A stretch of 30,518 nucleotides of DNA from Fastidiosibacter lacustris (lineage in GTDB: Bacteria > Pseudomonadota > Gammaproteobacteria > Francisellales > Francisellaceae), in contig NZ_QLIR01000020.1 in assembly GCF_003428155.1 (NCBI RefSeq), positions 1 through 30,518 of the forward strand. Reading direction: 5' to 3'. Below the pieces are notes generated by a model. The model saw only the letters and a list, made by a program, of their open reading frames with translations, made no database searches and was not told the DNA's origin. Of this stretch, positions 5,437-30,518 are shown piece by piece (within the stretch, counting starts at the first letter, position 1; each line of letters begins with the position of its first letter). A program made the translations under genes and the position numbers.

Positions 5437-6255
5437 CTACTGGATGCTAATTTGGCATTTATAACCTGCAAATTTTCGTACATTCATCACGCCAGTATCT
5501 AAGATAACATATTGCCCTTTCATTCCCATAAGCAACCCTTCAATAATTAGGGATTTATCCAAGTTATGTGCTTGTATTTTATTTGGGTATTCTAGCACAG
5601 GATAATGAATCTGCTGCTCAGACATTTTCACAATTTTTATTGATGCTTCACTATATTTTTCCTTTAAAGCATCAATAAAATGTTGCTCTTTTGCCAATAT
5701 TTTATTTTTATAATCTAATAAATCTAACTGATCAGGAGATGATTTTAGCATCGCCTGCCAATTGGTTTTATCAGTCACATGTTGTGCAAGCTTTACTTCG
5801 ATTAAACCTGATAGCAACCGCTCACTAACTTGAACAATTGGCAATGCCTGAGTTGCACCTTGATCAATCCAACGAGATGGAATATTTTTTTCACGCGTAA
5901 TACCCACTTTAATAACTGCCGTATTGGCAAGATAAATATAATGTGGCTTTATGCAGTGCGCCTTACCCCAACTACTATCACGGCATGTCCCTTCATGGTA
6001 ATGACATAATTCTGGCTTAATGATACAGGTATCGCATTCTGCTAAGCTTCTCAAACAAGGAAAACAATAGCCCTGATTAAAACTCTTTTTAGTGGACCGT
6101 CCACAGGCAACACAATTAATTTCCCCCAAAAATTTCAGAGTTATACGTTTACCAATAAGCGCATTCATTTTAAGCTCGCCTAGCTGATATTGAGCTATAT
6201 TACTTTCACTCAGGAAAGTTTGCATTTTTGACAAAGTGATTGTTTGTTCTATCAT
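5437..6255 (-). CDS. Cys-rich zinc-ribbon protein, DUF2797-like (function unknown)
   Basis: 272-aa ORF with a cluster of CxxC pairs (CVAC, CFPC, CDTC, then C-H-x-H, C, C) at aa 48-101. A conserved-looking block follows: HYIYLANTAVIKVGITREKNIPSRWIDQGATQALP. Length and pattern match my recollection of the DUF2797 family. The start ATG overlaps the stop of the upstream QueC-like gene (ATGA at 6252-6255). Confidence 0.6.
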   Translation of the reverse strand: MIEQTITLSKMQTFLSESNIAQYQLGELKMNALIGKRITLKFLGEINCVACGRSTKKSFNQGYCFPCLRSLAECDTCIIKPELCHYHEGTCRDSSWGKAHCIKPHYIYLANTAVIKVGITREKNIPSRWIDQGATQALPIVQVSERLLSGLIEVKLAQHVTDKTNWQAMLKSSPDQLDLLDYKNKILAKEQHFIDALKEKYSEASIKIVKMSEQQIHYPVLEYPNKIQAHNLDKSLIIEGLLMGMKGQYVILDTGVMNVRKFAGYKCQISIQ

Positions 6256-7082
6256 TTAACACTCTTTGCTTGTTTGCAGTTAAACTCAGCAATGACTTTT
6301 TGCGTATGCTCCTTAACAATTTTCCAACTTACAGGACCCAATTCATCTGCATATGCTGCTGGATCCTTTAGTTCCAAGGCTAAAAAGGCTTCAATTCGCC
6401 CAATTGAAGATGCTGACTTATAATCGCTATAAATCGTATTGTCATATTTAATAGGAATATATGAGGTAAACGTCATTCCATAGATCTCTTCATAGTCTAG
6501 TCCCAATGATTCACATGCACTTATTCCATCTTTTAATACATATGCTTTGTTATAATCAATATAAGGAAGATAATATTTCACACGCTCTGCATCCCAATTA
6601 CCCGCAACAAACGCTTCATAGTCTTTATCACGAAACAACTGACGACAATCTGGATAGGTTGCATGATCTCCAGCATGAACCCCCATTGCAATTAGAACCT
6701 CACAATCATTAGCTTTTGCAATTGACAATGCCACTGCTTGCAAAATTGAACTAAAGATTTTATTACGATTTGGCACCACCGTTAAGCGCATATTACTCTC
6801 GTGATAATGCCCTTGAGGCACATTATCTCCACCATTTATTAATGTGGAATGCAATAACTTTGCAAGTCCATCTATTTTAATTACTTGATGATGAAGCTTA
6901 AAGTTTTGTAGTTTAAGGTAATCAGCCAAGCTTCTTGCTTTATCTAATTCTACTTTATGCTTTTGACCATAATCAAAAGAGAGTGCTGTAACTTCATAAC
7001 CATCATCTAGTAAACGCAGCATCAATGAAGAGGAATCCATACCACCTGAAAATGACACTACTGCATATTTTCTTTTACTCAT
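6252..7082 (-). CDS. QueC-like PP-loop ATPase (7-cyano-7-deazaguanine synthase family, atypical: lacks the C-terminal Cys cluster)
   Basis: PP-loop SFSGGMDSS, FDYGQKH, VVPNRN and ATYPDCR match QueC landmarks (E. coli: FSGGQDST, FDYGQRH, FVPGRN, SGYPDCR). I set the start at ATG 7082 (MSKRKYAVVSFSGG), with GAGG 6 nt upstream. The ORF track begins at GTG 7094. Canonical QueC has C-x-many-CxxCxxC in the C-terminal region, whereas this protein reads TFTSY...KSASSIGRIEAF. Confidence 0.75.
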   Translation of the reverse strand: MSKRKYAVVSFSGGMDSSSLMLRLLDDGYEVTALSFDYGQKHKVELDKARSLADYLKLQNFKLHHQVIKIDGLAKLLHSTLINGGDNVPQGHYHESNMRLTVVPNRNKIFSSILQAVALSIAKANDCEVLIAMGVHAGDHATYPDCRQLFRDKDYEAFVAGNWDAERVKYYLPYIDYNKAYVLKDGISACESLGLDYEEIYGMTFTSYIPIKYDNTIYSDYKSASSIGRIEAFLALELKDPAAYADELGPVSWKIVKEHTQKVIAEFNCKQAKSVK

Positions 7083-7424
7083 TCTTGACCTCACTGCAAT
7101 TTAGAGTTTCAAATTAAAAAAGATAAACCAATTGAACTAAGTTTCAGCGTATTATCTGACTTTTTAACCCAGCAAATCACACATTACAGACATTAAAAAT
7201 TAGACCTGTTAATCCAAGTAGATTATACCGATAAACCAATCAACTTTATAAGTTATTTATGAAAATTTAACATGATAATTGCGTTTTAATCTATCTATAC
7301 ATCGCTTCAAAATAGGGTAGAAAAATTGCGAAGCCAACGTTGACTCAAACGTAGATATAATTACTTGCAGCTGAATAAGAATTCGCCTATAGTGCTAAAA
7401 AATTTTTAAAATATCTTACTACAA

Positions 7425-7892
7425 ATGATTTACCGAATTGAAAAATGTCTTGATGGCTTTTCCACTTGCTTTCGCCAATGGAACGCTATTCATTCACATT
7501 GCCGTTTTTTGCACGGCTATGCTATTTCGTTTCGCCTGCATTTTAAAGCAAATCAACTTGACCAACACAATTGGGTATGGGACTTTGGATGGCTAAAAGA
7601 TAAACAATTTTTAATTGATGGTATGACAACAAAAGAATGGTTTCACTATATGTTTGATCACACGATTGTTTTGTCTGAAAAAGATCCTGCCCTTAGTACT
7701 TTTAAAGCTCTTGAAGAACAAGGTCTAATTCAGTTACGTACTTTACCTTATTTTAGTTGCGAAGGTATTGCTGAGTTTGTGCTCAACAAACTAGGAAGTA
7801 TGGTTTTGACTCACAGTAATAATCGAGCACAACTCTATCGAGTAGATGTCATGGAAAACAATAAGAATCTAGGAGCTGCTGAAATTGAATAA
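7425..7892 (+). CDS. QueD/PTPS-family protein (6-carboxytetrahydropterin synthase-like, atypical)
   Basis: 155 aa. GFSTCFRQWNAIHSHCRFLHGYAISFRLHF aligns with E. coli QueD [39 protein letters not shown] aligns with LDHHYLN, and there is a C-terminal V-x-V-x-E. No obvious Shine-Dalgarno sequence precedes the ATG. Confidence 0.7.
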   Translation: MIYRIEKCLDGFSTCFRQWNAIHSHCRFLHGYAISFRLHFKANQLDQHNWVWDFGWLKDKQFLIDGMTTKEWFHYMFDHTIVLSEKDPALSTFKALEEQGLIQLRTLPYFSCEGIAEFVLNKLGSMVLTHSNNRAQLYRVDVMENNKNLGAAEIE

Positions 7893-8682
7893 CCTAGGAG
7901 GCGCATCACAACTTCGTGTCACCAATTATAATCAAATCCTACCTATAATCGAAATTTACCCTTGCTTACAAGGAGAAGGCTCTCGCCGTGGACATCCTTG
8001 TTTTGCGATTCGCACAACAGGGTGTACACACCGCTGCTATTTTGGTGAACAAGGGGACTGGTGCGATACGTGGTACTCAAGCATCCATGCGCAAAAAGGT
8101 AAGTTCTCATTTTATGACATCATCCAAATGATTGAATCTTCCCCTAACATAAAAGAAATCATGTTCACGGGTGGCGCACCAACTATGCACCCCGCTATCA
8201 TCAATGAAATCATGCACCTTGCATATCAACGTAATTTCTTTTTAACCCTTGAAACAGAAGGCTCACACTTTATCAAAACGGAGCATCCAATTCACCTCAT
8301 TAGCCTATCACCCAAGTTTAATAATTCGATTCCAAAGCTTGGAATACTTACACCTAAAGGCAAAAAGGTTGATCAAAAATTCATTGATCAGCATAACAAA
8401 TACCGCTTAAACCTTTATGCTATGCGTCAAATGATTGATTACCATCAAGATTATCAACTAAAGCCAGTTTGTGATGGAAGTCACGAAAATATCCAAGAAA
8501 TCAACTCTCTCATTGCTGAACTTAATATTCCTAGATCAAAAGTTTACCTCATGCCTGCTGGTAGAACTCGCAAAGAGATAATAAAAGCCTATCCAAAGAT
8601 CATTGAACTTGCACTTAAAGAAGGCTTTAAGTTTACAGGTCGCGATCACATTATCGCTTTCGATGACAAAATTGGCGTTTAG
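7885..8682 (+). CDS. QueE-like radical SAM enzyme (7-carboxy-7-deazaguanine synthase family, atypical cluster motif)
   Basis: LQGEGSRRGHPCFAIRTTGCTHRCYFGEQGDWCDTWY aligns with E. coli QueE [37 protein letters not shown], LETEG and LSPKF also fit QueE landmarks. The only in-frame start upstream of the QGEG motif is TTG 7885, with AGGAG at 7871-7875. It overlaps the QueD-like stop by 8 nt. Confidence 0.75.
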   Translation: MNNLGGASQLRVTNYNQILPIIEIYPCLQGEGSRRGHPCFAIRTTGCTHRCYFGEQGDWCDTWYSSIHAQKGKFSFYDIIQMIESSPNIKEIMFTGGAPTMHPAIINEIMHLAYQRNFFLTLETEGSHFIKTEHPIHLISLSPKFNNSIPKLGILTPKGKKVDQKFIDQHNKYRLNLYAMRQMIDYHQDYQLKPVCDGSHENIQEINSLIAELNIPRSKVYLMPAGRTRKEIIKAYPKIIELALKEGFKFTGRDHIIAFDDKIGV

Positions 8683-26475: not shown

Positions 26476-27198
26476 TTATAATCCACAACCATAATCCCAG
26501 CTACAGGTTTTGGCGAATTCATCGTAGTAATTATTGTTTTTTTCAAGGTTTTTAAGATAGTTTCTAAAATTTTGTTGAAACATCGTCTGCTTGAGTCTAG
26601 TTTCTAAATCGATAACCCTTGCAGTATCTATATCACTTAATGTCATAATATCCCGTTTAGTGAAATGAATACATGGCTGACATTCTAATGAACGATGCTT
26701 AAGTGGAGTTTGAAAGGGTGTTTTTGCAATGAGCTGATCACGCTGTTCTTCAGTCACATTTGCCAATAAATACTGTACTTGACGACTGTCATAACGATCA
26801 GATTCTTTGACTCTATCTGGTAAATCTGCTTGAACTTTACTCATGCTACGACGATTTGCCAATAAAATAATCGCATCTAACGTCTCATCGTGTTCTTCTA
26901 ACCAATTTAATATTGTAATACCTTTTAAAAACCCAGCACACCAGTGAAATTGTTGTGACGGAAATTGTCTACGCGTTTCAACCAATTTACTAAAGCCATG
27001 CTCTGCTTTAAGCTTATGATGACTAAACCCTAAAGAAGTTATCCAAGCACTTGCTTTTTCAACGCGCGCTTGCCAACTTTGTGCCTGCCAAGCTGTATCA
27101 ACTGACAATACTACAACGTCCTTAAACTTTAACTCATAGATTTTTTGAATTAAGGCTATGCTATCATCACCAAAGTTCGCAATAATGCAATACATCAT
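26476..27198 (-). CDS. PAPS-reductase-family (PP-loop-like) protein, function unknown
   Basis: 240 aa. Degenerate N-terminal PP-loop position (ANFGDDS), then RRQFPSQQFHWCAGFLKGITILNWL, resembling the R-x-FPS..WC...LK..P..WL block of PAPS reductase/DndC-like proteins. A later ECQPC recalls the ECG(L)H catalytic Cys region of CysH. The ATG overlaps the trpS stop (TAATG). Confidence 0.5.
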   Translation of the reverse strand: MMYCIIANFGDDSIALIQKIYELKFKDVVVLSVDTAWQAQSWQARVEKASAWITSLGFSHHKLKAEHGFSKLVETRRQFPSQQFHWCAGFLKGITILNWLEEHDETLDAIILLANRRSMSKVQADLPDRVKESDRYDSRQVQYLLANVTEEQRDQLIAKTPFQTPLKHRSLECQPCIHFTKRDIMTLSDIDTARVIDLETRLKQTMFQQNFRNYLKNLEKNNNYYDEFAKTCSWDYGCGL

Positions 27199-28220
27199 TA
27201 AAGACCGCTTTGTTGTTTAAGCTTATTCAACAATGCTTTTGCTTGCAGTCTTGCTTTTTGTGCACCCAACTTAAGATGCTCATCAATAATTTTTTTATTT
27301 GCAAGTAGATATTCATATTTTTCGCGCATAGGAGTAAGCACTTCATCCATTTTCTCAAATAACAGCTGTTTAGCTTCACCCCAACTAATGCCTTCATGAT
27401 AACGTTTTGCTAAAACGACAATTTCAGCTTCAGTTGCAAAATGGCGATATAGTGAGAATATCGTACAATTTTCTGTTGATTTCGGTTCTTCTGGTAATTG
27501 AGAATTGGTAATGACCTTCATCACTAATTTTCTAAGCTGTTTAGTTGTTGCAAAAAGCGGAATCGTATTATTATAACTTTTAGACATCTTGCGTCCATCT
27601 AAGCCTGGAATCGTTTGCGTTGATTCATCAAACATTGCCTCAGGTGCTTTAAGTAAATTACATTTATAGATATGATTAAAACGATTAGCAATATCACGCG
27701 CAATTTCAATATGCTGAATCTGATCTTTGCCAACTGGAACCAAATCAGCATTAAACATGATAATATCAGCAGCCATCAACATTGGATAATTAAAAAGCCC
27801 CATTGTAATCCCTGCATCATTATCTTTTTCACCATCTGCAATATTTCTATCTACCGCTGCTTTGTAAGCATGCGCACGATTTAACAGACCTTTTGCCGTC
27901 ACTGAAGTCAAAATCCAATTAAGCTCCATAATCTCAGGAATATCAGACTGGCGATAAAACATAACTTTCTCTGGATCAAGCCCTAATGCAAGCCATGTTG
28001 CGGCAATTTGATAAATATATTGCTCACGCAATTTTTTATCCCAAAGTTTAATAAGAGAATGGTAGTCTGCAATAAAGAAGTAGGCGTTAAAGTCTGGGTT
28101 TTTTGCCATTTCAAGTGCTGGTTTAATTGCACCAATATAGTTGCCCATGTGTGGCGTTCCAGAGGGTGTAATTCCAGTAAGCACAATTTTTCTATCTGCT
28201 TGTTTTATATTTTGCTGCAT
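27198..28220 (-). CDS. trpS: tryptophan--tRNA ligase
   Basis: 340 aa. TGITPSGTPHMGNYIGA (HIGH-type motif) and KMSKS. Confidence 0.95.
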   Translation of the reverse strand: MQQNIKQADRKIVLTGITPSGTPHMGNYIGAIKPALEMAKNPDFNAYFFIADYHSLIKLWDKKLREQYIYQIAATWLALGLDPEKVMFYRQSDIPEIMELNWILTSVTAKGLLNRAHAYKAAVDRNIADGEKDNDAGITMGLFNYPMLMAADIIMFNADLVPVGKDQIQHIEIARDIANRFNHIYKCNLLKAPEAMFDESTQTIPGLDGRKMSKSYNNTIPLFATTKQLRKLVMKVITNSQLPEEPKSTENCTIFSLYRHFATEAEIVVLAKRYHEGISWGEAKQLLFEKMDEVLTPMREKYEYLLANKKIIDEHLKLGAQKARLQAKALLNKLKQQSGL

Positions 28221-29136: not shown

Positions 29137-29463
29137 TCAATTTCTGATGCTCTTCACCTGCTTATGCTTAGGGTAGCCGATGAACACCGTTTGCTTTTGT
29201 TGATGATTTCCTTTGTTTTTAATGAATACCCAAAACAAAGCATTTGTTTCATCTTCACTCAACGTACTTCTCACCTGAATGTAGATAGTCTTTTCACTCT
29301 GAGGTACAGGATCAAGAAATATTGTATCGGACATTTTTGAGTTTACTTCAAGATTGCGATGTTTAATTGCCGTACCAATCGCAGCACAGCCTGAAAGCGC
29401 TAACAATGATGCTGCCATTGATGCAGTTATTGATAATTTTAGGATTTTTCCTTTTTCTTTCAT
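29137..29463 (-). pseudogene. traT: traT-like surface-exclusion/complement-resistance lipoprotein gene, 5-prime fragment
   Basis: The first ~62 aa (LLALSGCAAIGTAIKHRNLEVNSKMSDTIFLDPVPQSEKTIYIQVRS) are colinear with F/R100 TraT ([45 protein letters not shown]), including the lipobox. The ORF is 108 aa against about 240 aa for TraT. Similarity fades after aa ~62, and the ORF abuts the DsbB-like stop. Confidence 0.65.
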
Positions 29464-29504
29464 GTTTTTTCCTTATTGGTTGGTTGAGAAATGTATACAA
29501 AAAC

Positions 29505-29557
29505 TTGCTAGTATCTCAATTGAGATATATAATAAGATGACACTGCTAAATTGAGAT
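29505..29557 (+). promoter_or_regulatory. toxin-antitoxin promoter with palindromic operator
   Basis: TTGCTA (29505-29510), 17-nt spacer, TATAAT (29528-29533). The spacer holds a perfect 14-bp palindrome ATCTCAATTGAGAT (29513-29526). A third half-site, AATTGAGAT, repeats at 29549-29557, just before the antitoxin ATG. Confidence 0.55.
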
Positions 29558-29563
29558 GTTTCT

Positions 29564-29857
29564 ATGGCTAATACTTCGATGCTCCACGTTCGAGTTGATA
29601 ATGAACTTAAAGCGGATGCAGCAAAAAAACTCGCTAATCTTGGTTTAACCGTTTCTGATGCGGTGCGTATTTTACTCACACGCATTACGAAAGAAGGAGG
29701 CATGCCAGCAGGGCTAACAATGGAACCGAAGGAGTATGACGCTTGGTTTCGTACTAAAGTTAAAGAGGCATTAACTGATCCAAATCATGTAATTTCTCAT
29801 CAAGAAATTATGGATGAGGCTCAAACTTTGATTGATAAAAAACGCCGCCATGTCTGA
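29564..29857 (+). CDS. RelB/DinJ-family type II antitoxin
   Basis: 97 aa. The N-terminal ribbon-helix-helix MLHVRVDNELKADAAKKLANLGLTVSDAVRILLTRITKEGGMP aligns with E. coli DinJ VRARIDEDLKNQAADVLAGMGLTISDLVRITLTKVAREKALP. Confidence 0.8.
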   Translation: MANTSMLHVRVDNELKADAAKKLANLGLTVSDAVRILLTRITKEGGMPAGLTMEPKEYDAWFRTKVKEALTDPNHVISHQEIMDEAQTLIDKKRRHV

Positions 29858-30137
29858 GGTAAAATGGTCAACCCATGCACGTACCGATCTCTTGGCAATA
29901 GTGGACTATATTTCAGACGATAATCCAGATGCTGCATAACGTTTGAAAGACGACATTGAGTTAAAGGTAATAAGATTGCTGGATTTTCCGAAAATGGGAC
30001 GATCTGGACGAGTAAAGGGAACCAGAGAGCTGGTTACATGGGCAAACTATATTATTGTTTATCAAGAGAATGACAATACTGTAAGAATACTTCGTATATT
30101 ACACGCAGCACAGCAATGGTCTGAAATTAAGATTTGA
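29850..30137 (+). pseudogene. RelE/ParE-family toxin gene interrupted by an in-frame TAA
   Basis: ATG 29850 overlaps the antitoxin stop by 8 nt. The frame reads MSEVKWSTHARTDLLAIVDYISDDNPDAA, then TAA (29937-29939), then RLKDDIELKV...FPKMGRSGRVKGTRELV...YIIVYQENDNTVRILRILHAAQQW. That is one continuous ParE/RelE-like sequence in a single frame. The ORF track sees only the distal part, from TTG 29943. Confidence 0.75.
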
Positions 30138-30205
30138 TTGTGTTTTACCCCATTTTACGTTAGGTTGCTCAAAGAGCAAAAGTTAATAAAAACAAGGACA
30201 ATGCT

Positions 30206-30415
30206 ATGAATGATAAGCAAAAAGAAAGACTTTTAAAAATCGCTGAAACTCACCCTGAATTGGCGAAAGAAATGATCGATATTTTCAAAACTGAAAAATC
30301 AAACAACCAAGAACCCATTGCCGTGAAAATGGTGAAGTCAGAAGAAGATAAAATAGAAATTACTGCGGAGCAGAAGAAGTATGCGATTAGGTGTATAAGT
30401 TTAGACTTGACCTGA
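30206..30415 (+). CDS. hypothetical small acidic protein
   Basis: 69-aa ORF with a weak AAGGA SD 7 nt upstream. No recognisable motif. A hairpin GGTTGA/TCAACC (30453-30469) followed by a T-rich stretch lies downstream. Confidence 0.35.
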   Translation: MNDKQKERLLKIAETHPELAKEMIDIFKTEKSNNQEPIAVKMVKSEEDKIEITAEQKKYAIRCISLDLT

Positions 30416-30518
30416 CAGTTGCCTATTTTTCAAACGCGATTTTTGTCAGATATGGTTGAGCAATTCAACCTTCTCTTGCCAGTGCGTTTTCCCATCAGTA
30501 AAAGTTGCTATTGGTGTT

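Follow-up and report, generated by a model that had tools for sequence, protein, structure and literature searches.

Four genes in a divergent arrangement

The stretch of Fastidiosibacter lacustris DNA considered here (contig NZ_QLIR01000020.1, positions 1 to 30,518; 30,518 nucleotides, hereafter the window) holds a divergon in which a QueC-like gene followed by a DUF2797 gene is read leftward, and a QueD-like gene followed by a QueE-like gene rightward, from a shared intergenic region (Table 1). The same three enzyme families, together with folE and queF, make up the compact bacterial clusters for queuosine in tRNA. An earlier note, made from the sequence alone, described the four genes with their strands, overlaps and intergenic region as we find them, and its assignment of the genes to families is upheld by Pfam and NCBIfam profile searches. 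It also pointed out that all three Que-like proteins deviate from the canonical ligand motifs, which is borne out when they are aligned with their E. coli counterparts, and it took these deviations, together with the DUF2797 neighbour, as marks of a non-canonical 7-deazapurine system. What the cassette makes, and whether DUF2797 has a part in it, are the questions addressed here.

Table 1. Features of the divergon, with positions in the window
Feature	Positions	Strand	Remarks
DUF2797 gene	5437-6255	-	272 amino acids (aa), Pfam PF10977
Variant QueC-like gene	6252-7082	-	276 aa from ATG at 7082, as in the public protein for the contig
Divergent intergenic region between QueC and QueD operons	7083-7424		
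Variant QueD-like gene	7425-7892	+	155 aa
Variant QueE-like gene	7885-8682	+	265 aa from TTG start

The QueC-like protein matches Pfam PF06508 with 125 bits (gathering cut-off 22; E 3.6e-36), its full-length match in the PDB is a true QueC (2pg3, E 7e-17), and it stays below the NCBIfam equivalog cut-offs (TIGR00364, 120 versus 150.3 bits; PRK11106, 80 versus 378 bits). As in the canonical enzyme, the PP-loop is kept (SFSGGMDSS at residues 15-23, motif SGGxDS), and so is the YPDC motif. Unlike the canonical enzyme, the protein has lost the C-terminal Cys4 zinc site (C...CxxCxxC): the E. coli segment TCY...CGHCAAC aligns with TSY...YSDYKSASS, which is followed by an extra tail of ~40 aa. This loss holds for every member of the variant-QueC subfamily that we examined. 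The protein is likely a 7-cyano-7-deazaguanine (preQ0) synthase of a variant type.

A similar mixture of conserved and deviating features is seen in the QueD-like protein, which matches Pfam PF01242 (PTPS; 43.8 bits, cut-off 22.4, E 2.9e-11) and scores 21.6 bits against the TIGR03367 equivalog model, below its cut-off of 89.25. The catalytic residues Cys26, Asp78-His79 and Glu144 align with those of E. coli QueD and are invariant in the subfamily, whereas Phe16 and Tyr32 replace the first and the third of the three canonical zinc histidines (H...C-x3-H-G-H). A histidine, His25, directly precedes the catalytic Cys26 and is invariant in the window protein and its variant relatives (loci L007, L009, L011, L029 and L178-L181); in an alternative alignment this residue comes to lie near the zinc site. 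The metal site of the variant QueD may be lost or rebuilt; such a site appears to be undescribed so far, even though phages whose DNA is fully substituted use the enzyme. The protein is likely a 6-carboxy-tetrahydropterin (CPH4) synthase of a variant type.

The QueE-like protein scores 26.1 bits against Pfam Radical_SAM, just under the cut-off of 29.5, and its top NCBIfam matches are all five QueE equivalog models (best 51 bits, against a cut-off of 206). Its sole matches in the PDB are QueE structures (6nhl, 5tgs and 4njg). The three cysteines of the [4Fe-4S] cluster (C47, C51 and C60) are retained and invariant, in the spacing C-x3-C-x8-C instead of the canonical CxxxCxxC or Cx14CxxC, 6 extra residues standing between the second cysteine and the third. 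The protein is likely a 7-carboxy-7-deazaguanine (CDG) synthase, a radical SAM enzyme, again of a variant type. In the variant isoforms, the canonical zinc sites (the Cys4 site of QueC and two histidines of QueD) thus seem to be either given up or remodelled.

Some details of the locus depend on the choice of start codons. A GTG at 7094 is an alternative start of the QueC-like gene, which would add four codons (open reading frame 6252-7094). The QueC stop and the DUF2797 start share an ATGA at 6252-6255, read directly in the sequence, and DUF2797 is probably co-transcribed with queC in this genome. The overlap of the QueD and QueE genes is 8 nt, on condition that TTG is the QueE start. This TTG, at 7885, is preceded by GGAG and is the only in-frame start before the conserved sequence; a stronger AGGAGG lies at 7896-7901, within the QueE open reading frame. 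The ATG of the Cysteiniphilum QueE ortholog aligns with a CTT codon at 7912, and the QueE start site therefore seems to be shifted in this genome. Both promoters are presumably sited in the intergenic region, in which a promoter scan returned no convincing sigma-70 consensus. An Rfam scan of the same region, even at E<=10, gave no match and hence no preQ1 riboswitch, in agreement with the earlier note and unlike the canonical queuosine set. Across related genomes the spacer of the divergon ranges from ~80 to 620 bp.

Phage and cellular relatives of the variant enzymes

All three Que-like proteins match PHROG families (QueC-like 8e-37, QueD-like 1e-35, QueE-like 6e-40), and do so better than they match the bacterial equivalogs. 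Outside the family, the closest relatives of the QueC-like protein (58-63% identity) are encoded on phage contigs of 65-170 kb, which also carry genes for DnaB, ribonucleotide reductase and DNA polymerase B, as well as for a 154-aa PTPS protein, a 257-aa radical SAM protein, FolE and a protein of ~262 aa. Two cultured phages possess the same isoforms: phage immuto has all three (QueC 52-57%, QueD 42% and QueE 56% identical to the window proteins) and Cellulophaga phage phiST has the variant QueD (47%) and QueE (49%). The motif variants are identical in the immuto (QueC, QueD, QueE) and phiST (QueD, QueE) proteins. The DNA of both phages has been analysed by liquid chromatography-mass spectrometry: immuto DNA contains 345,000 fdPreQ1 and phiST DNA 302,000 dDG per 10^6 nucleotides, and in both the dG peak is gone (PMC10516641). 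Immuto, whose DNA contains a derivative of preQ1 (PMC10516641), encodes QueF in addition to this type of QueC. The chemistry of the DNA of both phages provides in vivo backing, albeit indirect, for the variant enzymes making CDG and preQ0. The QueD-like protein was also considered as a paralog of the DpdL decarboxylase; this was rejected, as its counterpart is the QueD of phiST and DpdL is Cys-less.

In three large uncultured phage genomes (L007 4497-8899, L009 5216-8019 and L011 4145-6828) the gene immediately upstream of the variant QueC codes for a DpdA3-like protein, 33-39% identical to immuto DpdA; L007 also encodes a phosphoribosyltransferase and FolE. It is probable that the DNA of these phages, too, is heavily modified by 7-deazaguanines.

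Cellular relatives were found as well. A scan of one genome per species yielded 567 confirmed matches for the variant QueC, carried by Fastidiosibacteraceae, Francisella, a metagenome-assembled genome of Legionella, Planctomycetes (Mariniblastus, Pirellulaceae), Entotheonella and Marine Group II archaea. We retrieved 80 loci and screened them with E. coli reference proteins and Pfam. On two further contigs, of marine Francisellaceae (L180 and L181), QueE and QueD genes are read in one direction and QueF and QueC genes in the other (QueE<-QueD<- ->QueF->QueC), and all three Que proteins are 57-63% identical to those of the window and share their motifs; this arrangement is the divergon of the window plus QueF and minus DUF2797. 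Among the 80 loci, QueF also precedes the variant QueC opposite a variant QueD at L029 (QueD<- ->QueF-QueC) and adjoins the variant QueC at L026. On the chromosome of an uncultured Francisella sp. (OZ251217.1; L032 7590-11693) the genes queE-queD-folE-queC-queF, with queC of the variant type, are co-directional, and Marine Group II archaea possess FolE-QueE-QueC-QueD clusters with the variant QueC. Like queuosine clusters, the orthologous Francisellaceae clusters thus hold queF and folE, whereas in the window queD and queE are the only genes of the pathway that adjoin queC.

QueF acts on preQ0 only. Because orthologs of the variant QueC adjoin QueF, there is strong evidence from gene context that the variant QueC truly makes preQ0 for the queuosine pathway. 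It pairs with differing types of QueD and QueE, since those encoded at L032 are of other types: in the QueE-like protein there (292 aa) ~30 inserted residues separate the second cluster cysteine from the third, and the QueD (181 aa) is of the canonical HGH type. The QueC without a zinc site is also the QueC of the FolE-QueE-QueC-QueD clusters of Poseidoniales and is common in marine Planctomycetes (L035-L091, which include Entotheonella). Its distribution suggests either an ecological cause (marine, possibly low-zinc) or spread by phages.

As the variants recur both in phages with deazaguanine DNA and in clusters with QueF and FolE, the cassette is best read as ordinary synthesis of preQ0, the queuosine precursor, by a variant isoform set, with DUF2797 as a lineage-specific neighbour; we put the probability of this reading at about 0.75. 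The earlier note was right in assigning the cassette to a 7-deazapurine pathway, namely that of preQ0. The view that the deviating motifs set it apart as non-canonical is not supported: they are subfamily-wide and occur in the phages with deazaguanine DNA (PMC10516641) and in the QueF/FolE clusters. In F. lacustris, QueD would turn H2NTP into CPH4, QueE would turn CPH4 into CDG, and QueC would turn CDG, via ADG, into preQ0, which would most likely feed tRNA queuosine through queF, tgt and queA elsewhere in the genome. Within the Fastidiosibacteraceae, DUF2797 has ended up downstream of queC.

Several points weigh against this reading. Searches of the window by tblastn with E. coli or Francisella Tgt, QueA, QueF and FolE gave no match, and the 7.7 kb of flank beyond its right end (its left end is the end of the contig) holds no queuosine genes; tgt, queA, queF, folE and a second, canonical queCDE set are absent from the window and these 7.7 kb. 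A search for QueF homologs had unnamed marine proteins, and no named one of Fastidiosibacteraceae, as its best 120 matches, which bears little on the question. We found no in vitro assay of the variant QueC, QueD or QueE in the literature, and their activity is deduced from the chemistry of phage DNA and from gene context. The chemistry of QueD may differ in detail, with two canonical zinc ligands gone. Finally, the four-gene block is kept across at least four genera with different flanks (see below), which exceeds plain synteny and leaves room for a functional link with DUF2797.

The close relationship with phage genes also allows the cassette to be seen as a recently acquired, phage-derived module with a use other than queuosine. 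It might, for example, modify DNA together with a DpdA from another part of the genome, or provide a resident prophage or defence system with preQ0. Outside Francisellales the closest relatives are indeed phage genes (QueC 58-63%, QueE 54-56%, QueD 42-47%), and PHROG scores exceed those of the bacterial equivalogs. The phage deazaguanine clusters, which share identical motif variants with the window (QueC 52-57%, QueD 42-47%, QueE 49-56%), carry a DpdA3 DNA transglycosylase, FolE and replication genes, however, and the window has none of these. No DpdA-family transglycosylase of the kind that characterises the Dpd and phage DpdA systems was found in the window (no match to Tgt). Unlike the phage clusters, the cassette is surrounded by housekeeping genes and is accompanied by DUF2797, a protein with no relation to DpdA3; the DNA at 5-9 kb resembles its surroundings in base composition, and the block is vertically conserved over several genera and orthologous to the QueF-containing divergon of Francisellaceae. 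We therefore regard a recent phage origin with such a use as very unlikely.

A role in defence was considered and rejected. The N-terminal PP-loop region is common to the QueC-like protein and the QueC-like proteins of QatABCD and type IV CBASS (weak matches: Cap9 in the PDB, 2.5e-4 over residues 11-47; PADLOC QueC model, 1e-13, residues 7-69), and PADLOC gives nothing beyond this partial match and nothing for the neighbours. Unlike those systems, the window has no QatA, QatB, QatD, CD-NTase or Cap10, and the partners of its QueC are QueD and QueE. The results from tblastn, PADLOC and the comparison with DpdA3 agree with the earlier note in that these various partners are absent from the window.

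The remaining genes of the window encode an ABC-F protein, CarB, an SNF transporter, a FadH-like reductase, aconitase, an ArnT-like protein, IspF, an LpxD-FabZ-LpxA-LpxB cluster and TrpRS; the nearest named relatives are Cysteiniphilum, Caedibacter and Facilibium. Directly downstream of the TrpRS-like gene (27198-28220), and with one base in common with it, lies an open reading frame of 240 aa without Pfam match (26476-27198, minus strand). Towards the right end (~29137-30518) and past it (L097 5150-9084), genes for TraT, a RelB/ParE toxin-antitoxin pair and a TraG_N protein look like what is left of a conjugative element, or like its border, next to the housekeeping genes.

DUF2797 and its place next to queC

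The DUF2797 protein is a full-length, typical member of its family (Pfam PF10977, 319.5 bits, E 1.8e-95, profile positions 1-226 of 227). It is made up of a beta domain at the N-terminus, a segment rich in Cys and similar to a zinc ribbon (CxxC...CxxC...CxxC...C/H), and a core with the conserved motif YxYLAN..KVGIT..R..E. The Cys/His-rich segment is invariant. The family counts more than 7,800 homologs, mainly in Gammaproteobacteria, to hundreds of which the window protein is 52-69% identical. The AlphaFold2 model is confident (pLDDT 93) and consists mostly of beta strands with few helices; it has no significant fold match among the solved structures of the PDB. Searched separately against Pfam, the isolated domains match no family other than DUF2797, and in a search of PDB sequences with hidden Markov models the sole match was a zinc-ribbon-like one, ribosomal protein S14 (E 1.4), so that the likeness of the Cys-rich segment to a zinc ribbon is a loose one. 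No match was obtained in PHROG or PADLOC, and none of the mentions of DUF2797 in the literature gives a function.

The conserved core motif and a set of weak Foldseek matches (Slx1, probability 0.11; viral GIY-YIG, T5orf172 and Hef-like or homing-endonuclease proteins, best E 4.6e-3) gave rise to the idea of a GIY-YIG/T5orf172 nuclease, which was not confirmed by hhalign against YhbQ-type GIY-YIG proteins (probability 0.1). An analogue of DpdA or TGT was also considered for DUF2797, and was rejected on a comparison with the DpdA3 proteins of immuto, phiST and metagenomic phages (E ~1) and a model that is not barrel-like.

These results bear on the proposal of the earlier note, that of a non-canonical system that either makes a 7-deazapurine-like moiety or adds it to some unknown acceptor; DUF2797 would then be the transfer or recognition component. 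Such a system would fit with all three Que enzymes falling under the NCBIfam equivalog cut-offs, with tgt, queF and dpdA not being nearby, and with a DUF2797 fold that is confidently predicted yet unmatched and whose weak hits are enzymes acting on nucleic acids. Against this stand the occurrence of the same variants in QueF/FolE clusters and in phages making standard bases derived from CDG or preQ0, a predicted secondary structure of DUF2797 unlike the TGT barrel, its dissimilarity to DpdA3, the failure of the GIY-YIG idea in the profile-profile test, the lack of PADLOC and PHROG matches and a family-wide gene context that is unrelated. Such a system is, in our view, highly improbable.

The full block of four genes is found again in the genomes of five Cysteiniphilum, two Caedibacter and one Facilibium, and the QueC-DUF2797 pair alone in GCA_000379445.1. 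The outer flanking genes of the window are found beside none of the recurring blocks, and the four-gene block is therefore more stable than its surroundings. This conservation has clear bounds, however: the QueE-QueD/QueC divergon occurs without DUF2797 in three related Thiotrichales genomes (L023-L025) and in Francisellaceae, from which the QueC-DUF2797 pair is absent, the two genes being unlinked in Francisella (L001, L032) and DUF2797 standing alone in F. philomiragia. The overlap of QueC and DUF2797, from which the earlier note spoke of translational coupling, is real in this genome; the coupling is not conserved, as the spacing varies from a 7-nt overlap to ~440 nt, with large gaps in Cysteiniphilum and an overlap in two genomes.

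Elsewhere the family keeps other company. In 80 further metagenomic DUF2797 loci (971 kb) none of the tested homologs of Que proteins of either type, Tgt or FolE was present. An aminopeptidase N gene (pepN) follows DUF2797 on the same strand in 28 of these 80 loci (L098-L177), and upstream there are often genes for a ~100-aa protein, a rhomboid-like membrane protein and NAD kinase. The neighbour associations of DUF2797 in PMC12804078 agree with this context. Adjacency of DUF2797 to queC is thus confined to Fastidiosibacteraceae, with pepN, the rhomboid-like gene and NAD kinase as its neighbours elsewhere, and the idea that the DUF2797 neighbour marks a non-canonical system is not supported, since beyond this one family of bacteria it is not associated with queuosine genes. 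A role of DUF2797 in the deazapurine pathway is not supported.

It could still be argued that the pathway is the ordinary one for preQ0 and queuosine and that DUF2797 is a genuine lineage-specific accessory to it, either a zinc-ribbon partner that stabilises or regulates QueC or an enzyme that acts on the same pool of tRNA or nucleotides. The order QueC-DUF2797 is kept in the window, in the eight genomes with the full block and in GCA_000379445.1 while the flanks differ, the two genes overlap in two genomes, and a QueC without a Cys4 site of its own is found next to a protein with an invariant Cys/His-rich segment. In phages, Francisellaceae, archaea and Planctomycetes, however, the variant QueC does without an adjacent DUF2797. 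Thousands of genomes have a DUF2797 gene with no queuosine neighbour, and the gaps between the two genes reach ~440 nt in Cysteiniphilum. An accessory of this kind is therefore unlikely. The more specific proposition, that Fastidiosibacteraceae recruited DUF2797 to work with the preQ0 pathway or with its QueC that lacks the zinc site, as a zinc-ribbon module or by acting on a tRNA or nucleotide substrate, we consider quite unlikely.

Meaning for the families concerned

With ordinary preQ0 synthesis as the preferred reading of the divergon, a QueC, QueD or QueE that scores low against the equivalog models and lacks ligand motifs is by itself no sign of a new system. The variant isoform set occurs in Francisellales and in many phages and, for QueC, also in archaea and Planctomycetes, and such deviations mark a distinct set of isoforms with which phages, Francisellales, Planctomycetes and Marine Group II archaea make 7-deazaguanines in the standard way. 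For DUF2797, a large family with a confidently predicted but unmatched fold, the conserved, lineage-specific adjacency to queC may be of interest to specialists. The context of pepN, the rhomboid-like gene and NAD kinase may offer a clue to what DUF2797 really does; a partnership between DUF2797 and QueC, if true, would be the first functional lead for a family with thousands of members.

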